Shown: positions 345 to 26,357, counted from the stretch's first letter. The stretch: 64,000 bases of DNA from Candidatus Omnitrophota bacterium (GCA_003141835.1 PLNR01000010.1:3768-67767); one strand, 5' to 3'. Notes: a model not told the origin generated them from the letters alone. Numbers and translations are program-made.

Positions 345-388
345 CCCCAAAAATCCTTGATATAATAAGATATTATCCTTATAATAAC
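345..388 (+). promoter_or_regulatory. Promoter cassette copy 1: CCCCAAAAATCC-TTGATA-17bp-TATAAT; ATG at 397 lies 11 nt after the -10
   Basis: TTGATA at 357-362, 17-nt spacer TAATAAGATATTATCCT, TATAAT at 380-385. The same cassette recurs at 15438, 10802 and 26328. Confidence 0.6.
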
Positions 389-396
389 TATAAAAT

Positions 397-2094
397 ATGA
401 AAAGAATATCCGGTCTGTTGCTGTGGATGGTATTTGCGGTCAACGCCGCTAACGCCTGGGCCCTTCAAGACAAAGCCGATATTATCTACATAGGCGGCGA
501 TATCGTTACGATGAACGATGTCCAGCCTGCGGCTGAAGCAGTCGCGGTCAAAGACGGCAAGATCCTCTCCGTCGGCAAAAAGGCGGATATTTTAGCCCTT
601 AAAGACAGTTCCACTAAGATCGTCGACCTCGGGGGCAGGACAATGCTTCCGGGATTTATCGATGCCCACAGCCATTTGACCATGGCTTTTATCTATCTGC
701 AGGCGGCGAACGTCTCCCCGGTACCGATCGGCACAGTGACCGACATCCCCAGCCTTAAAAACATTATCAAGGATTTTATAGCCAAAAATAAGGTCCCCAA
801 AGGCGAATGGGTCCTCGCGTGGGGTTATGACAACTCCGCGCTCAAGGAAAACCGCCACATCACTTGTGAAGACCTTGATCCCGTCACTCCGGATAACCCG
901 ACAGTAGTCGTGCATTGTTCCGCCCATGGCGCGGTGATCAATTCGCTGGCGCTCGCGCAATGGGGGATCACCGACAAGACCCCGACGCCTCCCGGCGGGA
1001 CTATCGGGCGTTTTCCCGGGACGAACCGGCCGAACGGCCTGTTGATGGAAGCCGCATGGCTCCCGTGCGAAGGGAAATTGCCGCGGCCTTCGCCGGATAA
1101 ACTGCTGGGAATGATACCACAGGCGCAGCAATTGTACGCGCAAAACGGCTACACCACGGCCGCTGAAGGGGCCACAGGATATGATGATTACAAATTGCTC
1201 TTTGCCGCTGCCCAAAAAGGCCTTTTATACCTCGATATCCGTTCGTTGCCCGTTTATTGGGACCTGGATAAATTCGATGCTGACAAGAGCGTTGTCTTCG
1301 GCAAAGACTATAACCATTTGAAACTGGCCGGAGTGAAATTCCTGATAGACGGTTCGCCGCAAGGGCTTACGGCTTTGATGTCGAAGCCTTACCTGGTCCA
1401 GGGGCCGAACGGAGAGGCGAATTGGCACGGCCTGCAGTCTGTTACCACAGACGATTTTAACAAACTCGTCAAGAAGGTAGTCGACCGCGGCATCCCGGTC
1501 TATACGCATTGCAACGGGGACGCCTCCATCGACATCGTAATAGCCGGGCTAAAGGCCGCCGGGGTTACCGCAAGCCAGGACCGGCGAGACGTGGTCGTGC
1601 ATTCCCAGTTCATGCGTCCCGAACAATTGGATGAATACGTCAAGCTAGGTGTTTTTCCCTCGTTCTTCACCAACCACGCCTTTTACTGGGGTGACACGCA
1701 CATAAGGAATTTCGGAAAAGACCGCGCATTTTTCTTGAGCCCGATGAAAAGCGCGAAAGCCAAGGGCATTCGCTTCAGCAATCACACCGATTTCCTTGTC
1801 ACCCCGCTTAACCCGATGATGCCGCTTTGGACCGCGGTGGCGCGCAGATCGAAATCCGGTGTGATCGTCGGGCCGAATGAGCGTATCGGCGTGATGGATT
1901 CGCTCAAGGCGCTGACGATCAACGGGGCTTATCAATACCATGAAGAGAATATCAAGGGTTCGATCGAACCGGGTAAACTGGCCGACTTTGTCATCCTGGA
2001 CCGTAACCCGCTGAAAGTTAAGACCGGCGACCTGAAGGGGCTTAAGGTGACGGAGACGATCAAGGAAAGCCGGATGGTCTATAAACTTAATTAG
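397..2094 (+). CDS. Secreted metal-dependent amidohydrolase (Amidohydrolase_3 / YtcJ-like TIM-barrel hydrolase)
   Basis: N-terminal signal peptide. GFIDAHSHL metal-binding HxH motif. Length 565 aa and a C-terminal GxxADFxxLD motif typical of the Amidohydrolase_3 family. Confidence 0.8.
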   Translation: MKRISGLLLWMVFAVNAANAWALQDKADIIYIGGDIVTMNDVQPAAEAVAVKDGKILSVGKKADILALKDSSTKIVDLGGRTMLPGFIDAHSHLTMAFIYLQAANVSPVPIGTVTDIPSLKNIIKDFIAKNKVPKGEWVLAWGYDNSALKENRHITCEDLDPVTPDNPTVVVHCSAHGAVINSLALAQWGITDKTPTPPGGTIGRFPGTNRPNGLLMEAAWLPCEGKLPRPSPDKLLGMIPQAQQLYAQNGYTTAAEGATGYDDYKLLFAAAQKGLLYLDIRSLPVYWDLDKFDADKSVVFGKDYNHLKLAGVKFLIDGSPQGLTALMSKPYLVQGPNGEANWHGLQSVTTDDFNKLVKKVVDRGIPVYTHCNGDASIDIVIAGLKAAGVTASQDRRDVVVHSQFMRPEQLDEYVKLGVFPSFFTNHAFYWGDTHIRNFGKDRAFFLSPMKSAKAKGIRFSNHTDFLVTPLNPMMPLWTAVARRSKSGVIVGPNERIGVMDSLKALTINGAYQYHEENIKGSIEPGKLADFVILDRNPLKVKTGDLKGLKVTETIKESRMVYKLN

Positions 2095-2104
2095 AGAGGT
2101 TAAT

Positions 2105-4003
2105 ATGCCGAAGGCAAAGATTTCCATCGCTTTATTATCACTCTGTTTTTTTACGGCGCAGGCTTTTGCCCAGACTTTTTCATTGAGTTCTTTAGGAGAG
2201 GTGTTCGCGCCGCGGGATAAGACGACGGTCTATGTCGCGAAGAAGATAATAACGATGGAAGACAGTAAGCCGTCTGCCTCGGCGGTCGCGGTCACCGGGG
2301 ACCGAATAGTCGCTGTCGGCACCCTCGACGAGGTCAAGAACGCCCTGAACGGGCAGGATTTTACCGTAGATAACCGTTTTGCCGGCAAGGTGATCATGCC
2401 TGGGCTGATAGACCCCCACCTCCATGTCTTCCTGCTCGCGTTCCTCGCGCCGACGACCTTCATCACGCCTGACGATTGGGATTTCCCCTGGGCGCAGATA
2501 AAGGGGGTCACCGGCCATGACGCCTATATGAAAAAGCTGGTTGAGTCCGAAAAGGCGATGAAGGACAAAAAAGAATGGTTTATCACGTGGGGCTATCACC
2601 AGTATTTCCACGGCAAGATCTCGCGAAAGGACCTCGACGCGGTCTCAATGACCCGTCCGATCGTGGTCTGGCACCGTTCCTTCCATGAGATATATTTGAA
2701 CACCGCCGCGATCAACGCCATGAAGATCACTGACGAGAATATGAAAGGGCACGGCCATGCGAGCGAGCAGATAGACCTCCCGAACGGCCATTTTTGGGAA
2801 GCAGGGTTCATCTATCTCGGCAATAATTACCTTATGAAACACCTGGCCTCGCCGCTCCGTTTTTATAAGGGGCTGAAGATGTTCAAGGAATATGTCAGCG
2901 CAAGCGGGATGACCACTGTCGCCGATCCCGGCATAGAGCTCCCAAATTCCGCCATGGAGATGATAAGGCTGGTGCTCGATAATGACAATACGCCGTTCCG
3001 GAGCTGTTTGATCGCCAACGGCCAGACGATGTATGAGACTTACGGCGCGGCCAAAGCGCTGGAGGAGACGGAAAAACGCCTCCGGAAGAACGGCCATCGC
3101 GTTTATTACATGCCGAAACAGGTAAAATTTTATTGTGACGGCGCCGCTTTTTCGCAGAATATGCAGCTAAAGGACGGTTATACGGACGGCCATACCGGCT
3201 CCTGGATCCAGCCGCCGGATGAGATCGAGGCATGCACTAAACTGTACTGGGACGCGGGTTACCAGATCCGCGTACACGTCAACGGCGATGAGGGCAATGA
3301 CGTGCTCATCAACGACCTTGATAAATTGATGAAAGAGAACCCGCGCAAGGACCATCGTTTCACATTCGACCATTACTGCGTCTCCACGCCGGAACAGGCC
3401 AAGCAGATCGCCCAGCTCGGCGGGCTCGTCAGCGTCAATCCTTATTATGTATATGTGCTGAGCGACTTGTATTCCCAGTTCGGCCTGGGGCCGGAGCGGG
3501 GGCAATACATGGTGCGTTGCAATACTTTGCTTAAAAATAATATACCGTTATCCCTGCATTCCGATTGCACAATGGCGCCGGCAAGGCCGTTGACGCTGGC
3601 ATGGTGCGCGGTTAACCGCCTGACCATGTCCGGCAAGGTCGCGGGACCCGAAGAAAAGATCGGCGTGAATGACGCTCTCAAGGCCGTTACCATTAATGCT
3701 GCTTATGTCCTGCAGAAAGAAAAAGAGATCGGCAGCATCGCTCCGGGAAAGACCGCCGACTTTACTATCCTTGAGCAGGATCCCTTATCGGTAAAACCGG
3801 AACAATTAAAGGATATCGCCGTGTGGGGGAACATCTTTGAAGGGAAGGTCTACCGGAATAAATATAAAAGCAAGGTTTCTATGTACACGGGCAGGGAATC
3901 GGAAATATTAGGGAATGGACCGTCCGGTTTAAACAGCCGGGGCCATGACGATCTTTGCATGCTTAACCAGATCCTGCAAGAGTCAATGAGGAGGGGAGAA
4001 TGA
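2105..4003 (+). CDS. Secreted amidohydrolase, second paralog (Amidohydrolase_3 family)
   Basis: Signal peptide. GLIDPHLHV motif. C-terminal PGKTADFTIL motif. Paralogous to the upstream gene. RBS GAGAGG upstream. Confidence 0.8.
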   Translation: MPKAKISIALLSLCFFTAQAFAQTFSLSSLGEVFAPRDKTTVYVAKKIITMEDSKPSASAVAVTGDRIVAVGTLDEVKNALNGQDFTVDNRFAGKVIMPGLIDPHLHVFLLAFLAPTTFITPDDWDFPWAQIKGVTGHDAYMKKLVESEKAMKDKKEWFITWGYHQYFHGKISRKDLDAVSMTRPIVVWHRSFHEIYLNTAAINAMKITDENMKGHGHASEQIDLPNGHFWEAGFIYLGNNYLMKHLASPLRFYKGLKMFKEYVSASGMTTVADPGIELPNSAMEMIRLVLDNDNTPFRSCLIANGQTMYETYGAAKALEETEKRLRKNGHRVYYMPKQVKFYCDGAAFSQNMQLKDGYTDGHTGSWIQPPDEIEACTKLYWDAGYQIRVHVNGDEGNDVLINDLDKLMKENPRKDHRFTFDHYCVSTPEQAKQIAQLGGLVSVNPYYVYVLSDLYSQFGLGPERGQYMVRCNTLLKNNIPLSLHSDCTMAPARPLTLAWCAVNRLTMSGKVAGPEEKIGVNDALKAVTINAAYVLQKEKEIGSIAPGKTADFTILEQDPLSVKPEQLKDIAVWGNIFEGKVYRNKYKSKVSMYTGRESEILGNGPSGLNSRGHDDLCMLNQILQESMRRGE

Positions 4004-5058
4004 TCGCGTTGCGAAAGAGCATAATTTTTGCTTTGATTGTCTTCTGCGTTTGCCCGGCCGCATATGCCGCGAACATGGGCCATTACAGCCCCGATGACAA
4101 CGGTGTCAGGGATTACGTTATGCCGCATAAGAAGGGATTATCGGTAACCGTCGATAATACGTATTTCACCAGCAATACGTTCAAGGGGACGGACGGCGGC
4201 AAATTAAATTCACTCTCCGCTACGCGCACAGAGACAAAATACATAAAGCTCTTCGATAAAACGATACCCGTTACCCGCACCGAAAGCGCCACAGTCGACA
4301 TTGATTTCAACAATAATACTTTTTACCAGACATGGGACCTGACATACAAGCCCGACGTGAAATTGCTGGGCGCGGATTACGCTTTTTCCGTATCCCCTAC
4401 ATGGGGATACGCCATGTTTGAGGCAAAATTAAAGGCGGATGCGAGATGCACCGTTTCCATAGGCGACATAAGGAAAACCCTTACCGCCGCTATTTCGGAT
4501 ACTATCAAGGAAGAGAATACCGGTTTCGGCGACCTGTATGTCCAGCCGCTCTGGTTCGCCTGGCGCGGCAAGCATTATGACGCGGGCTTAAGTTACGGTT
4601 TCTACGCCCCGACCGGCCAGCATGACAAGAACGGCCTGGCGAACATCGGATACGGCTTCTGGACCCAGCAGGTCCAGGCGAACCTCTATTACTTCCCGTT
4701 CAAGAGCCAGGGTACCGCCTTGGTGCTCCGGCCTACCTATGAGTGGAACTCCGAGAGAATAGATGAAGATGTAACTCCGGGCCAGACCATCAGCATCGAA
4801 TACGGCGTGTCGCAGATCGTTTTTTCACAGGCAGAATTGGCCGTCCTCGGATATGAGCAGATCCAATTGTCCGGGGAAAAAGGGGACAACGTGACCGGCA
4901 AGCATCCGATAAGCGGCACCAGAGGAATAGGCGGCCAGATAAAGGGCTGGGTCGTGAAGGATAAGTGTTCCATAGCCGCCAAGTACAGTGCGGAATATGG
5001 CACGAAAATGAATTTTGAAGGCAGCTCCTGGTCGCTTAACCTGAGTTGGATCTTTTGA
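4000..5058 (+). CDS. Outer-membrane beta-barrel channel protein (MetA-pathway / phenol-degradation-like putative OM transporter family)
   Basis: Signal peptide ending AYA. Alternating amphipathic beta-strand pattern. C-terminal WIF with terminal Phe, typical of OM beta-barrels. ATGA start/stop overlap with the upstream amidohydrolase. Confidence 0.55.
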   Translation: MIALRKSIIFALIVFCVCPAAYAANMGHYSPDDNGVRDYVMPHKKGLSVTVDNTYFTSNTFKGTDGGKLNSLSATRTETKYIKLFDKTIPVTRTESATVDIDFNNNTFYQTWDLTYKPDVKLLGADYAFSVSPTWGYAMFEAKLKADARCTVSIGDIRKTLTAAISDTIKEENTGFGDLYVQPLWFAWRGKHYDAGLSYGFYAPTGQHDKNGLANIGYGFWTQQVQANLYYFPFKSQGTALVLRPTYEWNSERIDEDVTPGQTISIEYGVSQIVFSQAELAVLGYEQIQLSGEKGDNVTGKHPISGTRGIGGQIKGWVVKDKCSIAAKYSAEYGTKMNFEGSSWSLNLSWIF

Positions 5059-5149: not shown

Positions 5150-5178
5150 TTGCAAATCCGGACAGTATTTGGTATAAT
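5150..5178 (+). promoter_or_regulatory. Sigma70-like promoter TTGCAA-17-TATAAT upstream of the ABC-F gene
   Basis: TTGCAA 5150-5155, 17-nt spacer, TATAAT 5173-5178. Confidence 0.5.
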
Positions 5179-5212
5179 AACCTGACAAATAAAAAATCGG
5201 GTTAGTTAAATT

Positions 5213-5242
5213 CGGCCCTGTTTGATGACGGGGCCTTTTTTT
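5213..5242 (+). terminator. Short GC hairpin plus U7 tract inside the ABC-F leader (terminator/attenuator candidate)
   Basis: GGCCC...GGGCC 5-bp stem followed by TTTTTTT at 5236-5242. It lies downstream of the promoter and upstream of the ATG at 5268. Confidence 0.35.
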
Positions 5243-5267
5243 CTGCCGATATTAAGGATCCCAAAAG

Positions 5268-6925: not shown

Positions 6926-9900
6926 ATGAGAGCGCGTTATTTAAAATTTTTCAAATTTTCCGGCCTTTTTGTTTTTGTCCTGCTTTCACTTTTTAGCCCA
7001 CCCGCAGCTACAGCCGAAACCTTTGATCAGGCATGCGCTAATGCCCTGGCCAATATCAAGGCAGTATCGGGTTCCAACGCTTTCGTCCCCGATCCCAATG
7101 CCATCCCTGCCAGGGGCAACAAGGCGATCATTACGATACAGGGCACTCCGGCCTCTGAGAATCCTGCTTTCGGCCTTACATATAACAGTAATTTTGGCGG
7201 CGGCACGAACTATTTAGTGGTCAGGACATTGACTAATAACGGGTTTTATAACAATAGCAGCGGAAACCTGCGGAACGGGGTGGGAGACTACACCACTTTC
7301 AACGACGGGACCGGGATCCATAGCGCCTCGTGGATGACTACCGGCAATGAAATGACTAAGGTTATTGATGCCAGCCACACTCTCCCCGGTGATATAGTGA
7401 CGACTTTGGAGCGGTCGCTTGGTATTAATACCGACCCGGCAAAGGGCGGTAATTCGCATACCGCGATAGTGGAATACGGCGTGATCCCCGATCTCAATCA
7501 TTTGATCCGGCCTACCAACCTGCTTTTGATCAAGAGTTATTCTCCAGATCACGCCGATTACACATATAACACCCCTCTTTTTAACCCGGTGCAGCCCCCG
7601 CTCGCGGATATGGGCCAGGCTGTCTTTGATCACGCAAAGGCTTACCTTCAATACTGGCAAACCACTCAGTTGGATGCCGGTGTTTTTCCTTGGACCGAGC
7701 TGGGGTATACGTATTACTGGGGGCAGAGCGGCATAACCCTTAATGATATACAGGGTTCAAGCGAGTTCATCATTTTGGGCGGCACCAATGTTAAGATCAT
7801 CGGCATGTATTCGCCGCAATCTTATATGTATACCAAAAACAAGAATGGCGCCTTCAGCAGCGACGCAGACGCCGAATACGGCAACGGTTTCGGAAGTTTC
7901 AATGTAACGGATACCTGCGATACTATCTGGGCAGGCAATGCTTTCCAGAAGAATGCCGGCAATGACCCTAATAATCCTAACCAGATAATTTTAGCCGCCT
8001 TACCCGGCGTCCCGACTGTTTCAGGGGGGCAGGGGCTGCTGGTCTGGTCGACGAACTATACCGTTACCAATAACGGCACCATAAGCGGAGCGACCGTTAA
8101 CAAATTAAAAGATGCCACTGCCGGTGCAGGTAAGAATAATCCGGGGATGGACGGCACCGCAAATATCGCCGTACTTTTTTTAGGTAATACCAGTTACGGA
8201 GATCCAGGCGGCAAAAATATACTCATTAACTCAGGGGAGATCTCCAGCGATCCCGCCAACGCCAGTACTGCCGTAGAGGCTGATGCGGGAACCACCGAGA
8301 TAACCAATAATACCGGCGGAATAATTTCCGGATATAAATACGGCATCCATTTTTTGAGCGGCACCAACAGGATCACTAATATGGGGACCATTTCCGCGAC
8401 CGGACCCGCGGCAGGTAATCCCGCGGCGATCCGGATCGACGGAGGAACTACCGCTATCGACAGTACCGGCGGGACTATCAACGGGAATGTGGTCGTGGCA
8501 TCCGGGGCCTCGCTTGATGTCGGCGCGTCCACATTGAATGTTAACGGCAAGTATGTACAGGATAACAGCTCAACCCTCAAGGTGACCGTTGCCGACCCGT
8601 CCTCATCCGGTAAAATAATATCCAACACCGATACGACCGTATCCGCGGCGAGCAATGTCAATGTTACGGTTGCGAACAGTACCTTCATCCCGAATAATAC
8701 CACATTCACGGTAGTAGACGCTGCAGGCGCCGCCGACGTAAATGTACCCGGCATGATCGCGTCAAGCGACCCCCGCATCACGTTCTCAGGCGTAAGCTCA
8801 AACGGCGGCCTCATTTTAACAGCGAGCCGCGCAACGAGCGGTTTCTCCAGTTTAGGCACAAATTCCAATACCTCTGCCGTCGGCGGTGTCCTGGATAACA
8901 TCTCAAGCCCGTCAGGCGATATGACAACCGTCTTAAATACACTCGAAGGACTGAGTAATTCGCAAACAGAATCGGCCCTTGCCACTGTCGTCCCGATAGT
9001 AGACAGCGGAGTGACCAACGTCAGCAATACTACCATTAACCAGTTCATCGGGACCAGTACCGATAGGCTGGGAGGCCTCTTCGCCCAGGCGCAACAAGAG
9101 GAAGAGACAGGCGTCTCTACCGGCAGTAAGGAAAAAAGCGGTTTCGAGGCATGGGGCAGGGGATTCGGCGAAGCCGCCCACCAAGACCCCAGAGGCTTAA
9201 GTAACGGCTATACCGCCACCATCTGGGGGACAGCATTAGGCGGCGACTTCCCCATATTTAACGACAAGGTAAGGCTCGGCGCCAGCGGCGGTTATGCCTT
9301 TAGCGACGTCAACTCAAAGGATAACTCCGGAGCAACAGACATCAACAGCTACCAAGCTACATTCTACGGCGGATACATAAACCCCGAGAAGCCCTACTAC
9401 ATAAACGGTGCCTTCTCATTCGCCTATAATACCTACAAAGGCAAAAGAAACATCGATATAGGCACGATTAGAAGGATTGCCAGCTCAAGCTATAAGGGCC
9501 AGCAGTACTCTGTCTTATTTGACGGCGGATATACCTTTAAGACCAAGAACATAAACATAACGCCTATCGCATCATTACAGTACCTGCGCCTAAACCTCCA
9601 GATCTACACCGAGACAGGGGCAGATGCCCTCAACCTAAGTGTCAAAGGCCAAGGCTACAATCTATTGGAATCCGGCCTGGGCGCAAGGTTCGACCGTCCC
9701 TTTGAGGGCAGCTACGGCACCTTGATCCCCGAGGTGCACGTAAAGTGGTTCTACGATATCATAACCGACAAGCAGGCCGCCACTTCGACTTTCTCAGGCG
9801 GCGGCGGCTCATTCGCCACCAACGGTTTTAGTCCCGCGCGCAATGCCTTAAACGCCGGCGGGCGTCTTGCGCTGATAACGAAAGGCAACTGGAGCTTCGA

Positions 9901-9976
9901 TGCCAACTACGACTTCGAATACAAACAGGACTTTACCTCCCATACGGGTTGGGCTGATATCAGGTACAAGTTTTAG
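6926..9976 (+). CDS. Autotransporter: Gly/Thr/Asn-rich beta-helical passenger plus C-terminal autotransporter beta-barrel domain
   Basis: Signal peptide. Repetitive GTxxxxG beta-helix-like passenger. C-terminal roughly 280 aa with alternating aromatic strands ending RYKF. ATG 6926 with upstream GGAAGA is preferred over the TTG at 6872 used by the ORF track. Confidence 0.7.
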   Translation: MRARYLKFFKFSGLFVFVLLSLFSPPAATAETFDQACANALANIKAVSGSNAFVPDPNAIPARGNKAIITIQGTPASENPAFGLTYNSNFGGGTNYLVVRTLTNNGFYNNSSGNLRNGVGDYTTFNDGTGIHSASWMTTGNEMTKVIDASHTLPGDIVTTLERSLGINTDPAKGGNSHTAIVEYGVIPDLNHLIRPTNLLLIKSYSPDHADYTYNTPLFNPVQPPLADMGQAVFDHAKAYLQYWQTTQLDAGVFPWTELGYTYYWGQSGITLNDIQGSSEFIILGGTNVKIIGMYSPQSYMYTKNKNGAFSSDADAEYGNGFGSFNVTDTCDTIWAGNAFQKNAGNDPNNPNQIILAALPGVPTVSGGQGLLVWSTNYTVTNNGTISGATVNKLKDATAGAGKNNPGMDGTANIAVLFLGNTSYGDPGGKNILINSGEISSDPANASTAVEADAGTTEITNNTGGIISGYKYGIHFLSGTNRITNMGTISATGPAAGNPAAIRIDGGTTAIDSTGGTINGNVVVASGASLDVGASTLNVNGKYVQDNSSTLKVTVADPSSSGKIISNTDTTVSAASNVNVTVANSTFIPNNTTFTVVDAAGAADVNVPGMIASSDPRITFSGVSSNGGLILTASRATSGFSSLGTNSNTSAVGGVLDNISSPSGDMTTVLNTLEGLSNSQTESALATVVPIVDSGVTNVSNTTINQFIGTSTDRLGGLFAQAQQEEETGVSTGSKEKSGFEAWGRGFGEAAHQDPRGLSNGYTATIWGTALGGDFPIFNDKVRLGASGGYAFSDVNSKDNSGATDINSYQATFYGGYINPEKPYYINGAFSFAYNTYKGKRNIDIGTIRRIASSSYKGQQYSVLFDGGYTFKTKNINITPIASLQYLRLNLQIYTETGADALNLSVKGQGYNLLESGLGARFDRPFEGSYGTLIPEVHVKWFYDIITDKQAATSTFSGGGGSFATNGFSPARNALNAGGRLALITKGNWSFDANYDFEYKQDFTSHTGWADIRYKF

Positions 9977-10805
9977 CCTTTTTATTTCGGCCTTATCCGT
10001 TTCTTTGTGCCTGTGCGGATGCGCCACGACATCCTATGATCCGGGATACGAGAACGGATTCATAAAAACTCTTATCCCCGGGCGTAATTTCACCCTTCTT
10101 TCGTATACCAGGATCAAAGAAACAGGTAAGCCGCTTGTAATTTACATCGAAGGGGATGGATTGGCATGGAAATCCCGTTCCCGTGTCTCTTCCGACCCCA
10201 CCCCAACGGACCCTCTCGTTATGCGTCTCACCGCCTTGGATCCTTCGCCGAATGTCGCGTACCTTGCCCGTCCGGGACAATATCCTTCCCTGGGAGCGTC
10301 CCGATGCGACCCGAAATACTGGACAGGAAGTCGGTTCTCGCGGGAAGTTATAGAAAATATGGATACGGCTGTCAGCCGGTTGCGCGAAAAAGCCAAGGCG
10401 CCGTCGGTGTCGCTAGTCGGTTATTCCGGGGGAGCCGCTGTTGCGGTCCTTATTTCAGCGAGGCGCGATGACATTACGGGCCTGCGCACTATCGCCGGGA
10501 ATCTTGATTGCGATGCCGTCAGCAGATGGAATGAAGTAAGTCCGCTCAAAGATTCGTTGAATCCTATTGATGTTGCGGCCAAGATCAGCGCTGTCCCCCA
10601 GCGCCACTTTATTGCGTCCGGCGACAAAGTCGTCCCTTCCTACGTCGCAGAATCATTTGCCGGGAATTGCGGCGATGAAAAATATAAGAGCATCACGACA
10701 GTCAAGGGCGCTACGCATTATTCAGGATGGGAAGATAAATGGGCCGGCCTGCTCAAGGTCCCGTTATATGATAAAAACGAGGCGCTGCTTCCCGAAACTC
10801 CTTGA
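9900..10805 (+). CDS. Lipoprotein alpha/beta-hydrolase (esterase/lipase-like, GYSGG nucleophile elbow)
   Basis: Lipobox L-C-G-C after a hydrophobic stretch. GxSxG motif VGYSGGAAV. The predicted start overlaps the autotransporter 3' end by 77 nt, so the start is uncertain. Confidence 0.6.
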   Translation: MPTTTSNTNRTLPPIRVGLISGTSFSLFISALSVSLCLCGCATTSYDPGYENGFIKTLIPGRNFTLLSYTRIKETGKPLVIYIEGDGLAWKSRSRVSSDPTPTDPLVMRLTALDPSPNVAYLARPGQYPSLGASRCDPKYWTGSRFSREVIENMDTAVSRLREKAKAPSVSLVGYSGGAAVAVLISARRDDITGLRTIAGNLDCDAVSRWNEVSPLKDSLNPIDVAAKISAVPQRHFIASGDKVVPSYVAESFAGNCGDEKYKSITTVKGATHYSGWEDKWAGLLKVPLYDKNEALLPETP

Positions 10806-10830
10806 TATAGTAAGACATTACCTCTATAAT
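10802..10830 (+). promoter_or_regulatory. Promoter cassette variant: TTGATA-17-TATAAT, 9 nt before ATG 10840
   Basis: TTGATA 10802-10807, spacer TAGTAAGACATTACCTC, TATAAT 10825-10830. Related to the cassette at 345-388. Confidence 0.55.
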
Positions 10831-10839
10831 AATAAAATT

Positions 10840-15400: not shown

Positions 15401-15437
15401 ATAAACAAAGTTGCAAATTCCTCTGTAATGGCACCTT

Positions 15438-15480
15438 CCCCAAAATTCCTTGATATAATAAGATATTACCTTTATAATAA
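15438..15480 (+). promoter_or_regulatory. Promoter cassette copy 2 (CCCCAAAATTCC-TTGATA-17-TATAAT), here followed by an SD-led 27-nt leader
   Basis: TTGATA 15450-15455, spacer TAATAAGATATTACCTT, TATAAT 15473-15478. Only 2 mismatches over about 44 bp relative to copy 1. Confidence 0.6.
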
Positions 15481-15505
15481 AATCAGGTAAACAAGAAAGG
15501 AAAAG

Positions 15506-18992: not shown

Positions 18993-21900
18993 ATGTATAT
19001 GCAAAACTTAAACCTGAAATCCAGCCTCTTATTGGCGGCCTTCCTTTTATTTTTTCCTTCCGGCGGATTTTCTTCGGAAATAAAGATAACGGCTTCCTCA
19101 TCCGAAGCCGCGTTAAGCCCTGAGAACGTATTTGACGGCAACATGGCCACCCGGTGGAGCAGCAAATTCTCCGACAAAGAGTGGCTTGAGATAGACCTCG
19201 GTGAAGCAAAAGAGATATCCGGCCTGACGCTGTTCTGGGAGGCTGCTTACGCGTCCTCTTACGAGGTCCTGGTATCAGCTGACGAAAAAGACTGGAAGAG
19301 CGTCTATAAGCAGGATAAGGGCCCCTGCGGAAGCGAAGAGGTCTCGTTCGAGAAGACCGTGGCAAGATATATAAAGCTGGTCTTTAATAAGAGGGCCACA
19401 AAATGGGGATATTCGCTGTTTGAGATCTCGATAGACGGAGCCGGCATAAATGATACCGGGAAAATAAACGCGAAGGAGATAATACCTCTCGAGGATAAAT
19501 GGGATTTTAAGACAGACCCCCGGAACGTAGGGGTTAAAGAAATGTGGTTTACCCCTGCCGGCGCTCCTAAAGATTGGGGCAAGATAGAGACCGGGCGGTT
19601 CTGGGAAGACCAGGGTTTTCCCAATTACGACGGGTACGCCTGGTATAAAAAAGATATTATGATACCCGCGGCCTGGAATGACGGCAAGGCCGTTTTGATG
19701 ATCGGCGGAGTCGACGACGCTTACGAGTTGTACGTTAACGGCCGGTTCGTCGCCGGATACGGCCCCAGGGTCACGAACTCGACTATACCCCGCAGCGTAA
19801 ACCAGACCCTGACCTTACCACAGGTCGGGAAATACCTGGTGCCGGGCGAACCGAATAATTTTACTTTCCGCGTCTTCGATGATTGGGGCAACGGCGGGAT
19901 ATCCAAACCCCCTATGGTGCTCATGCAGAACGAAGACGCAGTCCCGCAGATAAAAAAACGGCTGGACGCGCAAAGTTATTACCAGTTGAAAGCGAGGCCT
20001 TCGGAAAGGAAATATTATCCCGAATGGATAGGGGGCCGCCAGGCCTACTGGACCGTGGTCGGCGTAGAAGGGGATAAGGCGGAGAGCTGTTTTTGCGAAG
20101 ACGGGCAGGTCCAGTTGTACAACTGGGGCCCTTCCCTGATGCCCTTCATTTACACGGACAATAAACTCCTTACCCGCGAGGATTTCAGGGTCTCCCAGTC
20201 CCTCGAAAAAGGTTATCTTCCCATGCCTGAAGTGGTTTGGGAGAACAATGACCTGGTTTTTTCCCAGAGGCTGTTCGGTTATGGTAAACCGGATGAGGCC
20301 CTTACCTGCCTCAAATATACGTTAAAAAATAAAAGCGAAAAAAAACTGGCCGGCAAACTCTTCCTTACCGTAAGGCCTTTCCAGGTCTATCCCGCATGGC
20401 AGTGGAGCGGCGGGATGGCGATGATAAGGAACCTGGAATATGATACGGCGGGCGGGCATACGCTAAGGATAGACGGGAAAGACCGCCTGGTATCGCTCCG
20501 GGTCCCGGACAGGTTCGGCGGTTCTACGTATATGGAAGACGGCCTCGTCGCCGCGTTGAAGAGCGGGAATATCACCGCCAGGCCGTCGATCAACGATCCT
20601 TTCGACTATGCCTCAGGCGTCCTGGAATATGATTTCAGCATCGCTCCGAAGGCCGAAAAAGAATATTTCTTCCTCATACCTCTGCATGGCGCTGGAACGG
20701 CATTAAAAGTATTGGACAGCGCAGGCCCGGAAAAGGATCTTGAAGTAATGCGGGTGAAGACGAGGGAGTTTTGGGAAGAAAAATTAAACCGGGTACAGGT
20801 GAATATCCCGGATAAAGAGATGTCGGATGCCGTTAAGACCAGCCTGGCATATATGCTCATCAATAAGAACGGGCCGATGCTGCAGGCCGGCTCAGGCGCC
20901 TACAAGAAGTCGTGGATACGCGACGCATGTTCGGCTTCAGCCGCAATGATGAGGATGGGCCTTACCGAAGAGGTGAAGGAATATATCGATTGGTTTACCG
21001 GATGCATAAAGCCAAACGGCAAGGTCCCGCCCATCATGATCTCCGAGACCTCGGCCGAGCCCGCGTGGGAAAGGGAATTCGAAGAGTATGACAGCCAGGG
21101 CCAATACGTCTACTCCGTGCTTGAATATTACCGGTTTACCGGGGACAAGGAATGGCTCAAAGGCAAACTTCCCGCCGTAAAACGCGTCCTCGATTTCACC
21201 GAGGCCCTGAGGAAGAAAGAGGCAGGCGGCATATTCCCGCGCTCTGTCAGCCACGAGGGTTATTTCCCTGCGCCGGGCGTCCATAGTTACTGGGATGATT
21301 TCTGGGGTATCAAGGGATGGAAAGACGCCGCCTCCATCGCGGATATCCTGGGGGATAAGGAGCTGGCCGCCCGCGCTGAAAAAGAAACGGAAGATTTCAG
21401 GAGGTGCGTCAACGATTCCATTAAGGCCGTCCAGGCATCAAAGAAGATAGATTTTATACCGGGATCGGTCGAAAAGGCCGACCTTGACGCGCCGTCAACG
21501 GCTATCGCCGTCTGGCCGACCGAGGAATCGAAATACCTGCCGCAGCCTTCCCTGGATAATACTTTCGGGATATTCTGGAAGAAGCAGTTCCTGCCGAGCC
21601 TGGCGAGCGGGCCGAAGTGGTCGTATTCGCCGTATGCCTTCAGGATATCCCAGGTATTCGTCATCTCCGGCCAGAGGGATAATGCCGTAAAGATGCTTGA
21701 GGAGTTCATGAGGATGCGCAGGCCGCTTGCCTGGAACCAGTGGGCGGAGGGGTTTTTGGCAGATGACCGCAGGCCGTGGTTCGTCGGTGACTTGCCCCAC
21801 ACCTGGGTAGCCTCAATATTCATAAACGCGTTCAGGAGTTTATTTGTGTATGAAGATGATGGTATGCTCATTCTTGGTGGTGGCATACCAGAAAAATGGC

Positions 21901-22097
21901 TCTCGGACAAAGAGGGCGTATCGATAGGCAATTTCCCGACATTTTACGGTAATATCAGTTATTCCGTTAAGCAGGAGAACGGTGTTTTGAAGATCGAGGC
22001 TTCGGGTACTGCGCGCCCTCCGAAGGGTTTCGTTTTCAGGGGTCCTTCCGGAGGAGAGGTGGCTTTCCAGAGCCTGCCGTTCAGTTATGCGCCTTGA
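18993..22097 (+). CDS. Secreted multidomain glycoside hydrolase: F5/8 type C (discoidin/CBM32-like), GH2-type sugar-binding jelly-roll, and a six-hairpin (alpha/alpha)6 catalytic-like domain
   Basis: Signal peptide MYMQNLNLKSSLLLAAFLLFF. The FDGNMATRWSS...EWLEIDLGE segment matches a discoidin domain. The GYAWYKKDIMIPAAWNDGKAVLMIGGVDDAYELYVNG segment matches a GH2 N-terminal domain. The C-terminal half has a WIRDA...YVYSVLEYYRFTGD six-hairpin pattern. RBS AGGAGA 13 nt upstream. Confidence 0.6.
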   Translation: MYMQNLNLKSSLLLAAFLLFFPSGGFSSEIKITASSSEAALSPENVFDGNMATRWSSKFSDKEWLEIDLGEAKEISGLTLFWEAAYASSYEVLVSADEKDWKSVYKQDKGPCGSEEVSFEKTVARYIKLVFNKRATKWGYSLFEISIDGAGINDTGKINAKEIIPLEDKWDFKTDPRNVGVKEMWFTPAGAPKDWGKIETGRFWEDQGFPNYDGYAWYKKDIMIPAAWNDGKAVLMIGGVDDAYELYVNGRFVAGYGPRVTNSTIPRSVNQTLTLPQVGKYLVPGEPNNFTFRVFDDWGNGGISKPPMVLMQNEDAVPQIKKRLDAQSYYQLKARPSERKYYPEWIGGRQAYWTVVGVEGDKAESCFCEDGQVQLYNWGPSLMPFIYTDNKLLTREDFRVSQSLEKGYLPMPEVVWENNDLVFSQRLFGYGKPDEALTCLKYTLKNKSEKKLAGKLFLTVRPFQVYPAWQWSGGMAMIRNLEYDTAGGHTLRIDGKDRLVSLRVPDRFGGSTYMEDGLVAALKSGNITARPSINDPFDYASGVLEYDFSIAPKAEKEYFFLIPLHGAGTALKVLDSAGPEKDLEVMRVKTREFWEEKLNRVQVNIPDKEMSDAVKTSLAYMLINKNGPMLQAGSGAYKKSWIRDACSASAAMMRMGLTEEVKEYIDWFTGCIKPNGKVPPIMISETSAEPAWEREFEEYDSQGQYVYSVLEYYRFTGDKEWLKGKLPAVKRVLDFTEALRKKEAGGIFPRSVSHEGYFPAPGVHSYWDDFWGIKGWKDAASIADILGDKELAARAEKETEDFRRCVNDSIKAVQASKKIDFIPGSVEKADLDAPSTAIAVWPTEESKYLPQPSLDNTFGIFWKKQFLPSLASGPKWSYSPYAFRISQVFVISGQRDNAVKMLEEFMRMRRPLAWNQWAEGFLADDRRPWFVGDLPHTWVASIFINAFRSLFVYEDDGMLILGGGIPEKWLSDKEGVSIGNFPTFYGNISYSVKQENGVLKIEASGTARPPKGFVFRGPSGGEVAFQSLPFSYAP

Positions 22098-23632: not shown

Positions 23633-23647
23633 AAAGAGGAGGCTGCA

Positions 23648-24022
23648 ATGGCGAAGATCCTGATGATAGACGATGACGCGATGGTGTTAAAACTCTATTC
23701 GGAGATATTATCGAAAGAGGGGTTCGAGGTCCTGACTTCCAGCGACGCGAAAAATGGTTTTGACCTGGCTGTTTCGCAGGCCCCGGACCTGGTCCTCCTC
23801 GATATCATGATGCCGACCGTAGACGGGACCCGGGTGCATGAGGCCCTCTCGCAGAACGATAAGACGAAGGACGTCCCGGTCGTTTTCCTGACGGCGCTCG
23901 TGAGAGAAGAGGAAGTGGCGGAAAGCGGCGGGAAGATCGGCGGCCTGGATTACATATCCAAATCCACGCCCAAGGATAGATTTGTCAAACAGGTCAAGGA
24001 TATCCTGGCCAGGAAGAAATAG
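23648..24022 (+). CDS. Second single-domain response regulator receiver
   Basis: MAKILMIDDD...LVLLDIMMP pattern, 124 aa. RBS AGAGGAGG. Confidence 0.85.
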   Translation: MAKILMIDDDAMVLKLYSEILSKEGFEVLTSSDAKNGFDLAVSQAPDLVLLDIMMPTVDGTRVHEALSQNDKTKDVPVVFLTALVREEEVAESGGKIGGLDYISKSTPKDRFVKQVKDILARKK

Positions 24023-24034
24023 GGCTATACGATA

Positions 24035-25162
24035 TTGAGCGCGGAGTCCGGGTTTAAGGTAAAGATCGCGAGGAAGATCGAAGATATCCCCGTTGCCGAC
24101 TGGAATAAGCTGATGCCGGCGACCGGGGAGAACTATTATTTCTTCAAGACCCTCGACGAATCCGGCATGTCCCAGTTCTCGTTCTTTTATATTTTAGTGT
24201 ATGACAAGGATGCCCCGGTCGGGGCTGCCAGCTGCTTTATAATGAACTTCGGCCTGGATTTCGGAGTTACCGGTGTTCTCAAAGGGTTCACGGGATGCCT
24301 TAAGAAGATATTCCCTTATATCTTGGACCCGAGGATCCTGGTCTGCGGCCTGCCTAACGGCCAGGGAAAGATAGGGATCGCGGCAGATCCGGGCACGGTC
24401 ATCAAGGCCATATGCGAAGCGATGGAGCAGATAGCGAAGGAAAATAAGGCGGAGATCATCGTGTTCAAGGATTTCAGTTTCAGGTACCAGGATACGCTGG
24501 ATAAGTGCCTTGATGCCGGTTTTTTCAAGGTAGGGTCCCTGCCTTACATGGAGATGGATGTCCGCTTCCCGGACTTTGACGGGTACTTGAACACGTTAAG
24601 CTACATATCGAGGAGCGGGTTGAGGAGGAAGTTCAGGAAGATAGAAAAGGAAGTCAAGTTAGGCCTGGAAGTGAAGGGCAGGCTGGAAGAAGACGAATTG
24701 AAGGATGCGTACGCGCTCTATCTCCAGACGTACGGTAAGAAAGAGGTTGGGCTCGAGAAAGTGCCTGTGGATTTTTTCAGGAACATAGCGAAGAACATGC
24801 CTGAAGAGACGAAATTTTTCATTTGGCGGGTAGACAAAAAGATGGTCGCGTTCAGTTACTGCCTGGCCTCGGGGGGCCGTTTCCTTGATTATTACCTCGG
24901 GTTCGATTATTCGATCGCCTATAACTACCACCTTTATTTTATAAGGTTCCGCGACCAACTGGAGTGGTGTATCAAAAATAATATCAGGCTGTATGAATTC
25001 GGGCCTACCGGGTATGAATCGAAGAGGAGGCTGGGCTTCAGGCTTGCGTCGCTGCATAATTACGTAAGGCACCGTAACAGGTTCCTGAACCCGGTCTTCA
25101 AGGGCTTCAGCCGGCGCCTGGTGCAAAAATTATTAAAGTTTTTTTCGAAACGGGAAAGATGA
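24035..25162 (+). CDS. FemAB-like / DUF482 (PF04339-type) putative aminoacyl- or acyl-transferase with a GNAT-like fold
   Basis: N-terminal W..L....YFF..L..SG pattern and a length near 375 aa, typical of the family. The call is by pattern recognition only. Confidence 0.45.
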   Translation: MSAESGFKVKIARKIEDIPVADWNKLMPATGENYYFFKTLDESGMSQFSFFYILVYDKDAPVGAASCFIMNFGLDFGVTGVLKGFTGCLKKIFPYILDPRILVCGLPNGQGKIGIAADPGTVIKAICEAMEQIAKENKAEIIVFKDFSFRYQDTLDKCLDAGFFKVGSLPYMEMDVRFPDFDGYLNTLSYISRSGLRRKFRKIEKEVKLGLEVKGRLEEDELKDAYALYLQTYGKKEVGLEKVPVDFFRNIAKNMPEETKFFIWRVDKKMVAFSYCLASGGRFLDYYLGFDYSIAYNYHLYFIRFRDQLEWCIKNNIRLYEFGPTGYESKRRLGFRLASLHNYVRHRNRFLNPVFKGFSRRLVQKLLKFFSKRER

Positions 25163-26307
25163 TGGTATACATCAGGAAAAATCCCGGCGCGGAAGAGCGA
25201 CTTTCGATATTATCGAACGATTCCCGGTATGACCTCGCCTGCGCCTGCGGCACCAACGATGATGAGCATCGCCGCCGCTCAAAAGAGGGCAAATGGATAT
25301 ATCCGGTCGTGCTGCCCAACGGGGGGACCACATATCTATTTAAGACGCTGCTTTCCAACGAGTGCGTAAATAATTGCAAATATTGCCCGCTCAGGGCGGG
25401 TTCGGATACTGATCGCTGCGCCCTCAGCCCGGAAGAATTGGCCGGGGCTTTTATCTCTTATTATAACGCCCGCAGGGTCAGCGGGCTTTTCCTCAGCAGC
25501 GCTGTGACCGGCAGCCCGGACATCACTATGGAACGGATAAACCGCTCGGCGCTCAACCTGCGCAGGGCCGGGTTCAGGGGCTACATACACTTAAAGGTCA
25601 TCCCCGGCGCGTCCGAGGCTGCTATCCGCCAGAGTCTCTCCCTGGCGAACGCCGTTTCGTTGAATATAGAGACCGCAGGCGAGAATAATTTCAAGCATCT
25701 CAGCACGACAAAAGATTACCTCCGCGACATCATCCGGCCGATAGAGATGATAAGCCGCCTAACCGCGAAGGGGTCCCGTTACGCGGGGGTCAAACAGACC
25801 ACCCAATTTGTCGTCGGCGCTTCCGGAGAGACCGACAAGGAGATCATAAGCTATTCCTGGAGGCTGTATAAGGAATTGGGCCTTAACAGGGTCTATTTCA
25901 GCGCTTACCAGCGCGGCGCCGGGTCGCCGGAACTTCCCGGCGAGCGTTCGGGCCTGGCTAACAGTACTAGCAGGGATCTGCTAGTACGCGAGCACCGCCT
26001 ATACCAGACCGATTGGCTCATCCGCAAGTACGGGTTCAGGGCGGACGAGATACCCCTGGACCGGGACGGTAACCTCTCCCTCGGGACCGACCCTAAAGAG
26101 ATGTGGGCGAAGTCGCATCCCGAGTTTTTCCCGGTAAATATCAACAGGGATGACAGGGGCCGTTTGTTGCGCGTTCCCGGCTTGGGGCACGTGATGGTCG
26201 AACGGATACTTTCATTGCGGAAGAACGGGGCAAGGGTAGGCTCTATTGAAAAACTGGGAAGGCGGAATAAGCTTCTTACGAAGGCCGAGCGGTACCTGGC
26301 GTTTTAG
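25159..26307 (+). CDS. Putative DNA modification/repair radical SAM protein (TIGR03916-like) with a C-terminal helix-hairpin-helix
   Basis: ERLSILSNDSRYDLACACG N-terminal signature. CVNNCKYC CxxxCxxC motif. C-terminal RVPGLGHVMVERIL HhH motif. ATGA overlap with the upstream gene. Confidence 0.6.
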   Translation: MMVYIRKNPGAEERLSILSNDSRYDLACACGTNDDEHRRRSKEGKWIYPVVLPNGGTTYLFKTLLSNECVNNCKYCPLRAGSDTDRCALSPEELAGAFISYYNARRVSGLFLSSAVTGSPDITMERINRSALNLRRAGFRGYIHLKVIPGASEAAIRQSLSLANAVSLNIETAGENNFKHLSTTKDYLRDIIRPIEMISRLTAKGSRYAGVKQTTQFVVGASGETDKEIISYSWRLYKELGLNRVYFSAYQRGAGSPELPGERSGLANSTSRDLLVREHRLYQTDWLIRKYGFRADEIPLDRDGNLSLGTDPKEMWAKSHPEFFPVNINRDDRGRLLRVPGLGHVMVERILSLRKNGARVGSIEKLGRRNKLLTKAERYLAF

Positions 26308-26327
26308 GCGGCGGCGCATCAAAATCC

Positions 26328-26357
26328 TTGTTATAATAAGGCATAATCCCCTATAAT
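26328..26357 (+). promoter_or_regulatory. Promoter cassette variant (CAAAATCC-TTGTTA-18-TATAAT); ATG 26365 is 7 nt after the -10, i.e. leaderless
   Basis: TTGTTA 26328-26333, TATAAT 26352-26357. Confidence 0.55.

Follow-up and report, generated by a model that had tools for sequence, protein, structure and literature searches.

Putative mobile promoters have been described as highly similar upstream regions that precede non-homologous genes within one genome, some of their families being common to several genera, and have been read as regulatory DNA open to reuse, by which genes, newly acquired ones among them, are rewired or activated (Matus-Garcia, Nijveen & van Passel 2012, PMC3488235). 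The families delineated in that study cover 50-100 nt at an identity of at least 80% and were interpreted as recent or conserved mobilization events. The window analyzed here, a 64,000-nt stretch of DNA from a Candidatus Omnitrophota bacterium, resembles them in having highly similar DNA upstream of non-homologous genes. Copies 1 and 2 of the window are 93% identical but share only about 44 nt, whereas in other genomes the shared length of full modules is 130-150 nt. Moreover, the Omnitrophota family spans the whole candidate phylum, and its copies are no more alike within a genome than between genomes. The conservation of this cassette falls mainly on the promoter core, spacer included, which speaks for functional constraint over a long time rather than for copying in the recent past.

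The Correia elements of Neisseria provide a second comparison: these short, intergenic, many-copy repeats have inverted-repeat ends and can supply sigma-70 promoters to their neighbors. They occur in both orientations within a single genus, with defined terminal inverted repeats and TA target duplications. In contrast, the Omnitrophota module is strictly co-oriented with the genes and has ragged 5' ends, no target duplication was seen, and the window copies are devoid of inverted repeats. A third set of precedents comprises sigma-70 promoters with an UP element, of the E. coli rrn type, and the leaderless genes of Actinobacteria and Deinococcus. The cassette is like these in combining TTGATA-17-TATAAT with an A-tract and in placing the -10 element 7-11 nt before an ATG with no Shine-Dalgarno (SD) sequence. 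However, the spacer sequence of ordinary promoters is not conserved, whereas the cassette has at least 10 near-invariant spacer positions across dozens of genes and genomes. In Chlamydia, a "spacer A/T region" is reportedly needed for high-level transcription, according to work from the Tan laboratory. The sigma-66 promoters of that genus have spacers of AT-rich composition (PMC2743672), and they offer a precedent within the PVC group for a role of the spacer in promoter recognition by the housekeeping polymerase. The chlamydial feature is a compositional bias or short element, as against a fixed 17-nt sequence at many genes in Omnitrophota, and the likeness implies no homology. We found no paper matching the cassette sequence itself.

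The four repeats in the window are real, homologous copies, about 44 nt long, of a putatively strong promoter sequence, and all lie where the initial annotation had placed them. An independent repeat finder groups them into one four-copy family (D2), with cores on the plus strand at 344-387 (copy 1), 10789-10832 (copy 3, 82%), 15437-15480 (copy 2, 93%) and 26315-26358 (copy 4, 64% ungapped). Copies 1-3 fit a 33-nt degenerate consensus with no more than three mismatches, against an expectation of 0.00 from 100 dinucleotide-preserving shuffles, and copy 4 fits a version one base longer, with 0 expected by chance. Copies 1-3 are also the top three sigma-70-type matches (11/12) in the first 20 kb of the window, and the remaining 38 kb yielded 0 additional copies. 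The -10 hexamer is a perfect TATAAT (6/6) in all four; relative to TTGACA, the -35 hexamer is TTGATA (5/6) in copies 1-3 and TTGTTA (4/6) in copy 4, and the spacers measure 17, 17, 17 and 18 nt. Hence, the description of the cassette as TTGATA with a 17-bp spacer applies to the first three copies but not to copy 4, and copies 1 and 2, thought to differ at about two positions, actually differ at three (41/44 identical).

Each copy stands directly upstream of the gene that had been named for it, and the identities of these genes are borne out by Pfam. Copy 1 (340..396, plus strand, like all features below) consists of a remnant of an upstream module block (CTAATCCCC, 340-348), an A-tract (349-353), the -35 element (357-362), the 17-nt spacer and the -10 element (380-385), followed by 11 nt lacking an SD and the ATG at 397 of an operon (397-5058) coding for two Amidohydro_3 proteins and a MetA-like outer-membrane protein. 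In copy 3 (10789..10839), the -35 element (10802-10807), 17-nt spacer and -10 element (10825-10830) are followed by 9 nt, likewise free of an SD, and the ATG of an ankyrin gene with a signal peptide (10840-11586). Its upstream arm is not purely intergenic: it codes for the six C-terminal residues (LLPETP) and the stop codon, a TGA within CCTTGA, of an ORF at 9900-10805. Copy 2 (15437..15505), which includes the A-tract, has its -35 element at 15450-15455, a 17-nt spacer and the -10 element at 15473-15478. The next 27 nt share homology with the beginning of the module leader (AAAATCAGGTAAACAAGAAAGG) and supply the SD GAAAGG (~15495-15500) for the ATG at 15506 of a CxxCxxCC/YkgJ-like gene, which in turn is followed by a B12-radical SAM gene (from 16098). 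The diverged copy 4 (26315..26364) combines a -35 element at 26328-26333, an 18-nt spacer and a -10 element at 26352-26357 with a gap of 7 nt to the ATG of a class-A beta-lactamase-related hydrolase (Beta-lactamase2, 26365-27288), with a bestrophin-like gene downstream (27304-28083). This variant recurs with the same spacings: in the related genomes L057 and L058, the orthologue is likewise preceded by an 18-nt spacer and a 7-nt gap, such that the gap is conserved in three bla orthologues.

Promoter activity, strength and start sites are predictions that draw on consensus and position: the holoenzyme of the housekeeping RNA polymerase would initiate ~7 nt past TATAAT, and the 7-nt gap kept at the bla orthologues is an indirect hint at such a start. 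The start codons are backed by signal peptides beginning at M1, and the sequence between the -10 element and the ATG in copies 1, 3 and 4 (11, 9 and 7 nt) is composed of A and T only and is without an SD; we therefore predict leaderless mRNAs for these three copies. The amidohydrolase, ankyrin and beta-lactamase-like transcripts would carry a 5' leader of 0-5 nt and be translated by leaderless initiation, and the ykgJ transcript would have a leader of roughly 20 nt with an SD derived from the module. To our knowledge, no leaderless initiation has been documented for Omnitrophota.

The cassette extends well beyond the window. Three further copies are found in the 10 kb upstream of it in the same genome, on a contig that is 100% identical to the window across 12 kb (L050, with the TTG at 1753, 5280 and 6011). 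Scanning one genome per species for the exact pattern returned 13 loci, 11 of them with an Omnitrophota-type context; two AT-rich matches in other phyla look like chance. A metagenome scan yielded 36 loci, most with conserved flanks, and a profile search brought the family to 61 non-redundant copies, up to 3-4 per 8-13 kb. Taken together, the pattern scans and profile search place these 61 copies on about 45 contigs, essentially all from Omnitrophota, with copy numbers and taxonomic range being lower bounds as the scans demanded an exact match at 21-22 positions. The primary matches are biased by the pattern, and this is mitigated by 19 secondary copies outside its selection. The four window and three L050 copies lie upstream of a co-oriented transcription unit, as do 53 of the 61 family copies, which have an ORF start within 450 nt; most of the others are at contig ends or before a terminator. 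Two copies (L036) lie between divergent genes, a position that calls for a promoter. The copies are intergenic and co-oriented with the next gene, and the set is not specific to this window or genome but belongs to a phylum-wide family. Its distribution is patchy, with some 21-kb Omnitrophota stretches free of any copy, and a search of viral sequences gave no match.

In most other genomes, the core is embedded in a conserved module of about 150 nt or more, comprising an upstream block (GCGAGGAAATCCCTCTCTAA), often preceded by a terminator-like hairpin further upstream, the promoter and a transcribed leader of ~55 nt (...AGAGAGGTTTCCCCTCG..GAGAGGGACCCC). The stretch conserved in full modules, ~ -50 to +20, equals the RNA polymerase footprint. 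Block E, upstream, and the first part of the leader are both copies of the palindromic GAGG-N5-CCTC; they flank the promoter and lie ~79 bp, or 7.5 helical turns, apart. The 5' boundaries of the modules are ragged (-55, -66, -87, -110 and -130), and homology between unrelated contexts stops sharply at +79..+84. Five loci (L009, L013, L015, L017 and L045) have in common an extension from +83 to about +200-300, and L006, L009 and L013 show an intrinsic terminator-like, sRNA-like hairpin ~100-130 nt downstream. In the lineage of the window, the copies are trimmed to the promoter core, both full flanking blocks and the inverted repeat being absent; the remnants of the upstream block in copy 1 and of the leader in copy 2 show their descent from the long module.

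Among 18 copies outside the pattern selection, the C-TTGATA positions are conserved at 83-100% and the -10 hexamer at 94-100%. The spacer elements TA, TAAG and TATT reach 71-100%, TATT being as invariant as the hexamers, and positions -16..-13 are variable. Accordingly, the proposal of a spacer conserved beyond the needs of sigma-70 is upheld, as is that of promoter-like cassettes before unrelated genes; the A-tract upstream of TTGATA-17-TATAAT lies at about -44..-39. Ordinary promoters serve the tRNA genes of L007, a genome that bears modules, as well as other genes of the window, and this, together with the near-invariance of the spacer, marks the cassette as a distinct promoter class. The spacer is not indispensable, since a degenerate member (L056, 10943-11017) keeps the -35, the -10 and the upstream block with an unrelated spacer. 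Given that cassette identity is no higher within genomes than between them (0.821 versus 0.815, genome fragments being compared), we interpret the family as old and under selection rather than as the product of a recent mobile burst. The four sites are, with a probability of about 0.75, homologous sigma-70-type promoters belonging to this old, selectively maintained, Omnitrophota-wide family. Judged from the sequence, recognition of the cassette most likely involves a further factor or RNA polymerase contact specific to the lineage, and co-regulation through a spacer-binding factor is possible.

That last possibility can be refined, tentatively and without excluding the promoter-family reading, into a regulon operator in which the -35/spacer segment binds one transcription factor that switches all cassette genes together. 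Besides the conserved spacer and the distinctness of the class from the ordinary promoters of the same genomes, two candidate symmetries are available, the imperfect 14-bp palindrome CTTGATATAnTAAG and the half-sites GATAT..GrTAT, 10 bp apart, and the type-2 consensus read from the alignment (CTTGATATATTAAG) is 12/14 self-complementary. However, the TTG of the -35 element and AT-richness by themselves impose part of the palindrome, and its outermost positions differ non-complementarily between the two subtypes (C..A versus T..G). The flanking GAGG-N5-CCTC copies also speak for an operator, but their separation of 7.5 turns makes looping unfavorable and both blocks are missing from the window copies. 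The downstream genes also have no common function, and the window copies have no linked regulator as a candidate.

It is unlikely that the cassette is read by a dedicated sigma or polymerase-associated factor rather than by the housekeeping sigma alone. The match of the conserved stretch to the polymerase footprint would fit such a factor, for which a candidate exists in a 150-aa ORF resembling sigma-70 region 2. It lies directly upstream of modules in L017, L040, L033 and L047 (twice), with a partial copy elsewhere in L022, and L017 and L040 share a region of 96% identity that takes in this ORF and runs to module position +83, and are unrelated beyond. Its similarity to sigma factors is weak (Pfam Sigma70_r2, E = 0.0026; NCBIfam SigY, 4.8e-5), the matches falling under curated thresholds, and it has no region 4. 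Furthermore, it was seen only in the low-GC subtype, a homologue is absent from both the window and L050, and the hexamers follow the canonical consensus of housekeeping promoters and are optimally spaced, for which a special sigma is not needed.

Turnover of the cassette at orthologous genes bears on whether it is a recently active miniature mobile element (MITE- or Correia-like, with an outward promoter) inserted at four sites. The ykgJ orthologues in the window, L010, L043 and L007 all have the cassette, and the window and L010 align at 85% nucleotide identity over 1.5 kb that begins at the cassette, takes in ykgJ and reaches into the radical SAM gene, the flanking DNA beyond the cassette being unalignable. 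Orthologous copies are retained between genomes at 84-86% protein identity. The cassette is absent from ykgJ in L014, from bla orthologues at 76/68/67% and from the 79% amidA orthologue, which has an SD instead; conversely, a full module precedes the 77% orthologue in L006 of the window gene at 18993-22097, which itself is without the cassette. At the cassette-less orthologues (67-79% protein identity), the intergenic DNA is not alignable. Such differences in presence and absence, a short repeat in unrelated contexts, the sharp homology end at +79..+84, an imperfect inverted repeat around the promoter in full modules (GAGGAAATCCCTCTCT ... AGAGAGGTTTCCCCTC) and the probable horizontal acquisition of the amidohydrolase operon would all suit an element of this kind. 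Recombination between dispersed repeats would give sharp boundaries too, and against recent activity stand the lack of excess identity within genomes, an orientation always that of the downstream gene in an always intergenic position, the ragged 5' boundaries, the window copies without any of the inverted repeat, the retention at orthologues, the lack of viral copies and the failure to see any target-site duplication, transposase or recombinase at any locus. We therefore regard recent mobility, raised in the initial annotation as a small mobile module, as quite improbable.

Least probable is that the repeat only resembles a promoter and is instead an RNA that is structured or regulates in cis, a switch that inverts, or a site of recombination or uptake: a conserved transcribed hairpin-like segment and inverted repeats around the core in full modules, the sRNA-like terminators and the shared +83 extension could be cited for it, but the window copies fold no better than shuffles (z-scores -0.3 to +1.5), the leader hairpin has 0 compensatory pairs and only -5 kcal/mol, Rfam 15 returned nothing at gathering thresholds for the window and 11 loci and nothing relevant at E <= 1 for 10 loci, all 61 of 61 copies keep one orientation relative to flanks and genes and an unsystematic look at the ORFs adjoining copies at mapped loci noticed no recombinase, both of which speak against an inverton, and it would otherwise be an extraordinary coincidence for start codons to be preceded, at 7-30 nt, by a perfect -10 element and, optimally spaced from it, a 5/6 match to the -35.

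Returning to the old promoter family, its genes are diverse. Exported proteins are enriched only about 2-fold, which does not sustain a restriction to secreted or host-interaction genes, and the cassette also precedes genes for pyruvate kinase, KatG, response regulators, antitoxins, a P-type ATPase and YkgJ. Its presence before different genes in different lineages supports recruitment at unrelated loci. We propose that it has been gained and lost before orthologous genes over time, including before the probably horizontally acquired amidohydrolase operon, and that it acts as a reusable promoter rather than as a currently active mobile element. These observations suggest that the uncultured Omnitrophota have a special, so far undescribed promoter class.

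The sequence reported to be shared by four genes in the window is real and as described, as judged by reading the sites, by repeat finding and by shuffling. All four copies lie on the forward strand and are grouped by the repeat finder as a single family, D2: TCCCCAAAAATCC-TTGATA-TAATAAGATATTATCCT-TATAAT-AA (copy 1, 344-387), TCCCCAAAATTCC-TTGATA-TAATAAGATATTACCTT-TATAAT-AA (copy 2, 15437-15480), TTCCCGAAACTCC-TTGATA-TAGTAAGACATTACCTC-TATAAT-AA (copy 3, 10789-10832) and CATCAAAATCC-TTGTTA-TAATAAGGCATAATCCCC-TATAAT-AG (copy 4, 26315-26358). An origin by chance or low complexity is ruled out by the shuffles, in which 0.00 matches to the degenerate consensus are expected; copies 1-3 are the top three sigma-70-type matches within the first 20 kb, and Hamming, regex and profile scans of the window found no fifth copy. 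The initial annotation correctly identified the downstream genes, namely the amidohydrolase operon behind copy 1 (397-5058, two Amidohydro_3 genes and a MetA-like outer-membrane protein), the ankyrin gene behind copy 3 (10840-11586), the ykgJ-like gene (15506) with the B12-radical SAM gene behind copy 2, and bla, a class-A beta-lactamase-related gene, behind copy 4 (26365-27288). It put the difference between copies 1 and 2 at about two positions where the actual figure is 3/44, and its 17-nt spacer holds for copies 1-3 but not for copy 4, which has 18 nt. Repeats of another kind occur within coding regions: 99-nt ankyrin units at 76-83% identity form an intragenic DNA tandem repeat at 10951-11521, and five 33-nt tandem units encoding a DYSKYY-KP-like motif (12842-13150) lie within a 1048-aa glucoamylase/CBM9 protein.

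The cassette represents a predicted phylum-wide promoter class of Omnitrophota, of which the window holds four trimmed members. An exact-pattern scan (CCTTGNTATANTAAGNNATNAN{4,5}TATAAT) of one genome per bacterial or archaeal species matched 13 loci. Eight carry an Omnitrophota or Omnitrophica label. Three more are labelled otherwise ('bacterium', 'Planctomycetia' bin, 'Chloroflexi' bin) yet share the conserved flanks, and L006 and L013 among them encode 75-88% orthologues of window genes. The other two, AT-rich matches in other phyla that fall within a shared coding sequence, are probably due to chance. Relaxing the pattern slightly and scanning JGI metagenome contigs brought up 36 loci, at least four of them AT-rich chance matches; a phage origin was rejected, none of the viral contigs scanned giving a match. 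A profile search spanning module positions -70 to +86 yielded 61 non-redundant copies, 19 of which fall outside selection by the scan pattern, with as many as 3-4 of them in 8-13 kb (as in contigs L008, L003, L043 and L047). The window itself belongs to Omnitrophota: the radical SAM protein encoded here shares 93% identity with its counterpart in MAG STB_86 (L010), window and L010 aligning at 85% nucleotide identity over 1.5 kb that run from the cassette across ykgJ and into the radical SAM gene, and the beta-lactamase-related protein has hundreds of homologues at 60-96% named Candidatus Omnitrophica or Omnitrophota. An 83% bla orthologue (P0005) has synteny like the window's. The initial idea of a reused promoter misjudged scale and specificity, the predicted class spanning the phylum rather than this window.

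The same genome contains further copies. An ENA contig retrieved via exact-protein look-up (ERZ19980002:c_000000003470, here L050) is 100% identical to the window across a 12-kb overlap, its position 9605 corresponding to window position 1. Three additional cassettes, all on the + strand, occupy the 10 kb preceding the window, with their TTG at L050 positions 1753 (followed by an ATG 11 nt past the -10 and a 264-aa exported protein), 5280 and 6011, the latter two preceding paralogous exported proteins of 182 and 183 aa. The tally for this genome is seven within 36 kb, then none across the next 38 kb. A cluster at 49621-61315, which has no cassette, encodes NADH-dependent [FeFe]-hydrogenase subunits, the HydE/F/G maturases, an Rrf2 regulator and a hybrid-cluster (prismane) protein.

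The chief feature that still calls for explanation is the near-invariant spacer. Among 17-18 copies found by the profile only and not by the scan pattern, C-TTGATA is 83-100% conserved, TA at -29/-28 88%, TAAG at -26 to -23 71-94%, TATT at -21 to -18 94-100% and TATAAT 94-100%, with positions -16 to -13 free. A plain sigma-70 promoter would not be expected to hold a spacer element as constant as its hexamers, and the suggestion of a reused promoter with a meaningful spacer was right in kind. We infer a factor that reads the spacer. An imperfect 14-bp palindrome in the -35 half (CTTGATATAnTAAG), or the recurrence of GATAT and GrTAT at a 10-bp distance, could be a putative protein site, neither symmetry being convincing alone. 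Compared by eye with the consensus of Fur, PerR, LexA, FNR, Pho-box and dif/Xer sites, neither the spacer nor the upstream blocks show a fit. One degenerate member (L056, 10943-11017) keeps the upstream block, A-tract, CTTGATA and TATAAT around an unrelated 17-nt spacer; 9 nt past its -10, an RsbW-like kinase gene starts with GTG.

A universal housekeeping promoter is ruled out, as the promoters at the tRNA genes of a module-bearing genome (L007) and elsewhere in the window are ordinary. Other good window promoters, such as those at 5150 (TTGCAA-17-TATAAT), 11621 (TTGACA-17-TAAACT), 39341 and 46210, have just the hexamers in common with the cassette, and entire 21-kb stretches of Omnitrophota genomes hold only 0-1 copies. 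The promoter at 5150 is of the extended -10 type (TTGCAA-17-TGgTATAAT) and is followed about 35 nt on by a GC-rich hairpin and T-run (5214-5245) immediately 5' of an ABC-F ATPase gene (ATG 5268); the whole (5150-5245) resembles the transcription attenuators described at ABC-F resistance genes. We found no description of the cassette class in Rfam or in the literature searchable by sequence strings or by Omnitrophota promoters.

In most other contigs, the core is embedded in a conserved block of about 150 nt with the consensus ...GCGAGGAAATCCCTCTCTAA(T/A)CCCCAAAAATC-CTTGATATA(G/T)TAAG(A/G)TATTAC(4 variable)-TATAAT-(AAAACCAGCTAAAT or TAGGCTAATAAAT)-AGAGAGGTTTCCCCTCG-loop-GAGAGGGACCCC. Many copies have further elements upstream, namely a terminator-like hairpin (TGTCCGCC..GGCGGACATTTTT), a partial palindrome and a direct repeat (CGGACAAAACGGACA). 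All-against-all BLAST between unrelated contexts gives a sharp 3' limit of homology at +79 to +84 past the C of CTTG and a ragged 5' limit at -55 to -130. There are two module subtypes that track host GC content, the window copies belonging to the 'CCCCAAAA / AAAACCAGC' subtype. These align to the core columns only of the module profile, and no other module blocks were found elsewhere in the window; copy 1 has a remnant of the upstream block (CTAATCCCC), and copy 2 retains the first 22 nt of the leader, from whose AGAGAGG its Shine-Dalgarno sequence GAAAGG is derived. The terminator-like hairpin, (A)TGTCCGCC..GGCGGACATTTTT, also recurs behind unrelated genes in many Omnitrophota contigs, often immediately 5' of the module (in the window's own genome, L050 5950-5990 and 9090-9130); sequence conservation of terminator stems is not normal.

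Several loci, all outside the window, extend the module by about 120-200 nt past +83 (L009 1047-1189 on the - strand, L013, L045, L015, L017, and also the L039 upstream region), adding a second conserved hairpin (UCUCCUC..GGGAGAG), an intrinsic terminator and more conserved sequence. The extended form looks like a cassette-driven small RNA of roughly 110-130 nt and has no Rfam match. At L002 1962-2175 (= L026), about 50 nt separate a full module from a downstream nhaA-I (Na+) riboswitch (Rfam 51 bits), behind which lies a membrane protein gene; a gene-specific riboswitch can therefore be combined with the generic leader. Directly 5' of modules in several low-GC contigs is an ORF of about 150 aa weakly similar to sigma-70 region 2 only (Pfam E = 0.0026; NCBIfam SigY 4.8e-5): L033 9139-9591 (-), L040 2576-3049 (-), L017 328-753 (+), two copies in L047, and L022 2-163. 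Between L017 and L040, identity is 96% from the ORF to module +83, past which the two contigs are unrelated. The ORF is possibly a trans factor, or just a neighbor, and has no homologue in the window.

Position and orientation argue for a promoter role of the cassette: a co-oriented ORF starts within 450 nt of 53 of the 61 copies, the rest lying mostly at contig ends or ahead of a terminator. Consecutive genes often each have their own cassette (L008, L003, L043), and in L036 two copies sit between divergent genes, where a promoter must exist. A structured RNA is ruled out for the window cassettes, which show no RNA fold (z -0.3 to +1.5), as is a known RNA family, neither cassette nor module matching Rfam. 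The module leader hairpin is weak with no compensatory changes at the predicted pairs, so conservation acts on the primary sequence; by eye, one unpaired C/A position turns A-U in three sequences, too little to count as covariation. Leader variants (CCACTT) co-vary with the local 3' arm, against long-range pairing with the upstream block. A mini-ORF within the leader has inconsistent starts among copies (GTG, ATG, TTG, GGC, GCG), and a reverse-strand small peptide (MSVLSG...) in the upstream region varies in length; both were rejected. For copies 1, 3 and 4, only A/T-rich sequence of 11, 9 and 7 nt, respectively, separates TATAAT from the start codon, each start being backed by a signal peptide or transmembrane N-terminus from M1. 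With transcription predicted to start about 7 nt past the -10, these mRNAs would be leaderless or near-leaderless. The copy 4 layout (18-nt spacer, 7-nt gap) is kept in L057 and L058 at a protein identity of 84%.

The family is old and selected, with turnover. Type-1 cores are 82.1% identical within the same genome versus 81.5% between genomes, and so give no indication of a recent burst or homogenization. Presence differs among orthologues, so the cassette has been set before different genes in different lineages. It precedes ykgJ in the window, L010, L043 and L007 (flanks not alignable) and is lacking at ykgJ in L014; it precedes bla in the window, L057 and L058 and is lacking at bla orthologues of 76%, 68% and 67%. 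The window glycosidase-like gene (18993-22097) lies 40 nt behind a helicase gene with no cassette, and a full module precedes the 77% orthologue in L006. The upstream arm of copy 3 encodes the last six codons and stop of ORF 9900-10805 (C-terminal tail …LLPETP*); the L012 orthologue ends nine residues shorter (…PLYGQ*), different genes follow it, and the cassette there precedes another gene. The window amidohydrolase has one close homologue (79%), the rest being at most 59% identical and from unrelated phyla (Methanosarcina, Shewanella, Limnocylindrales and others), which suggests that the operon was probably horizontally acquired. The 79% relative has an ordinary SD leader at the gene and no cassette in its 21.7 kb. 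These comparisons show that at least the amidohydrolase operon and bla gained the cassette within the window's own lineage. Placement in front of different genes per lineage fits the idea of 'promoter propagation' (PMC3488235). As a recently active element, the small mobile module initially proposed lacks support: the marks of an active MITE, namely terminal repeats, target duplications, occurrence in both orientations and greater similarity within genomes, are missing.

On a crude N-terminal criterion, 21 of the 50 cassette-driven genes appear to be exported, versus 51 of 248 other ORFs (odds ratio 2.8, p = 0.002). Further members of the set are pyruvate kinase (twice), KatG, a ferritin-like/SOD/MDH operon, response regulators, antitoxins, YkgJ, a P-type ATPase, and regulators of TetR-like and Fur-like type. 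A regulon of secreted genes only, or of host-interaction genes, is not supported; the four window genes show a common promoter type rather than a demonstrated common function.

Tentatively, with a probability of about 0.3, we propose that Omnitrophota own a second, phylum-specific 'promoter code', a 30-70 bp composite of upstream block, -35, fixed spacer, -10 and leader for which the reader would be a putative dedicated factor associated with RNA polymerase, or else an unusual contact of the polymerase. Such a code would mark many genes of mixed function, a good number of them exported or newly acquired, for a common expression mode, often with leaderless mRNAs, the four window copies being minimal members. 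For Omnitrophota, which are widespread nanobacteria, uncultured and possibly dependent on hosts, we know of nothing on transcription control; a promoter class with a spacer conserved like the hexamers is unusual among bacteria. Reused before dozens of unrelated genes across the phylum, the cassette lets transcription units and start sites be predicted in MAGs, hints at a missing trans-acting factor, suggests the use of leaderless translation in Omnitrophota, and offers a ready-made promoter, predicted to be strong, for later genetics.
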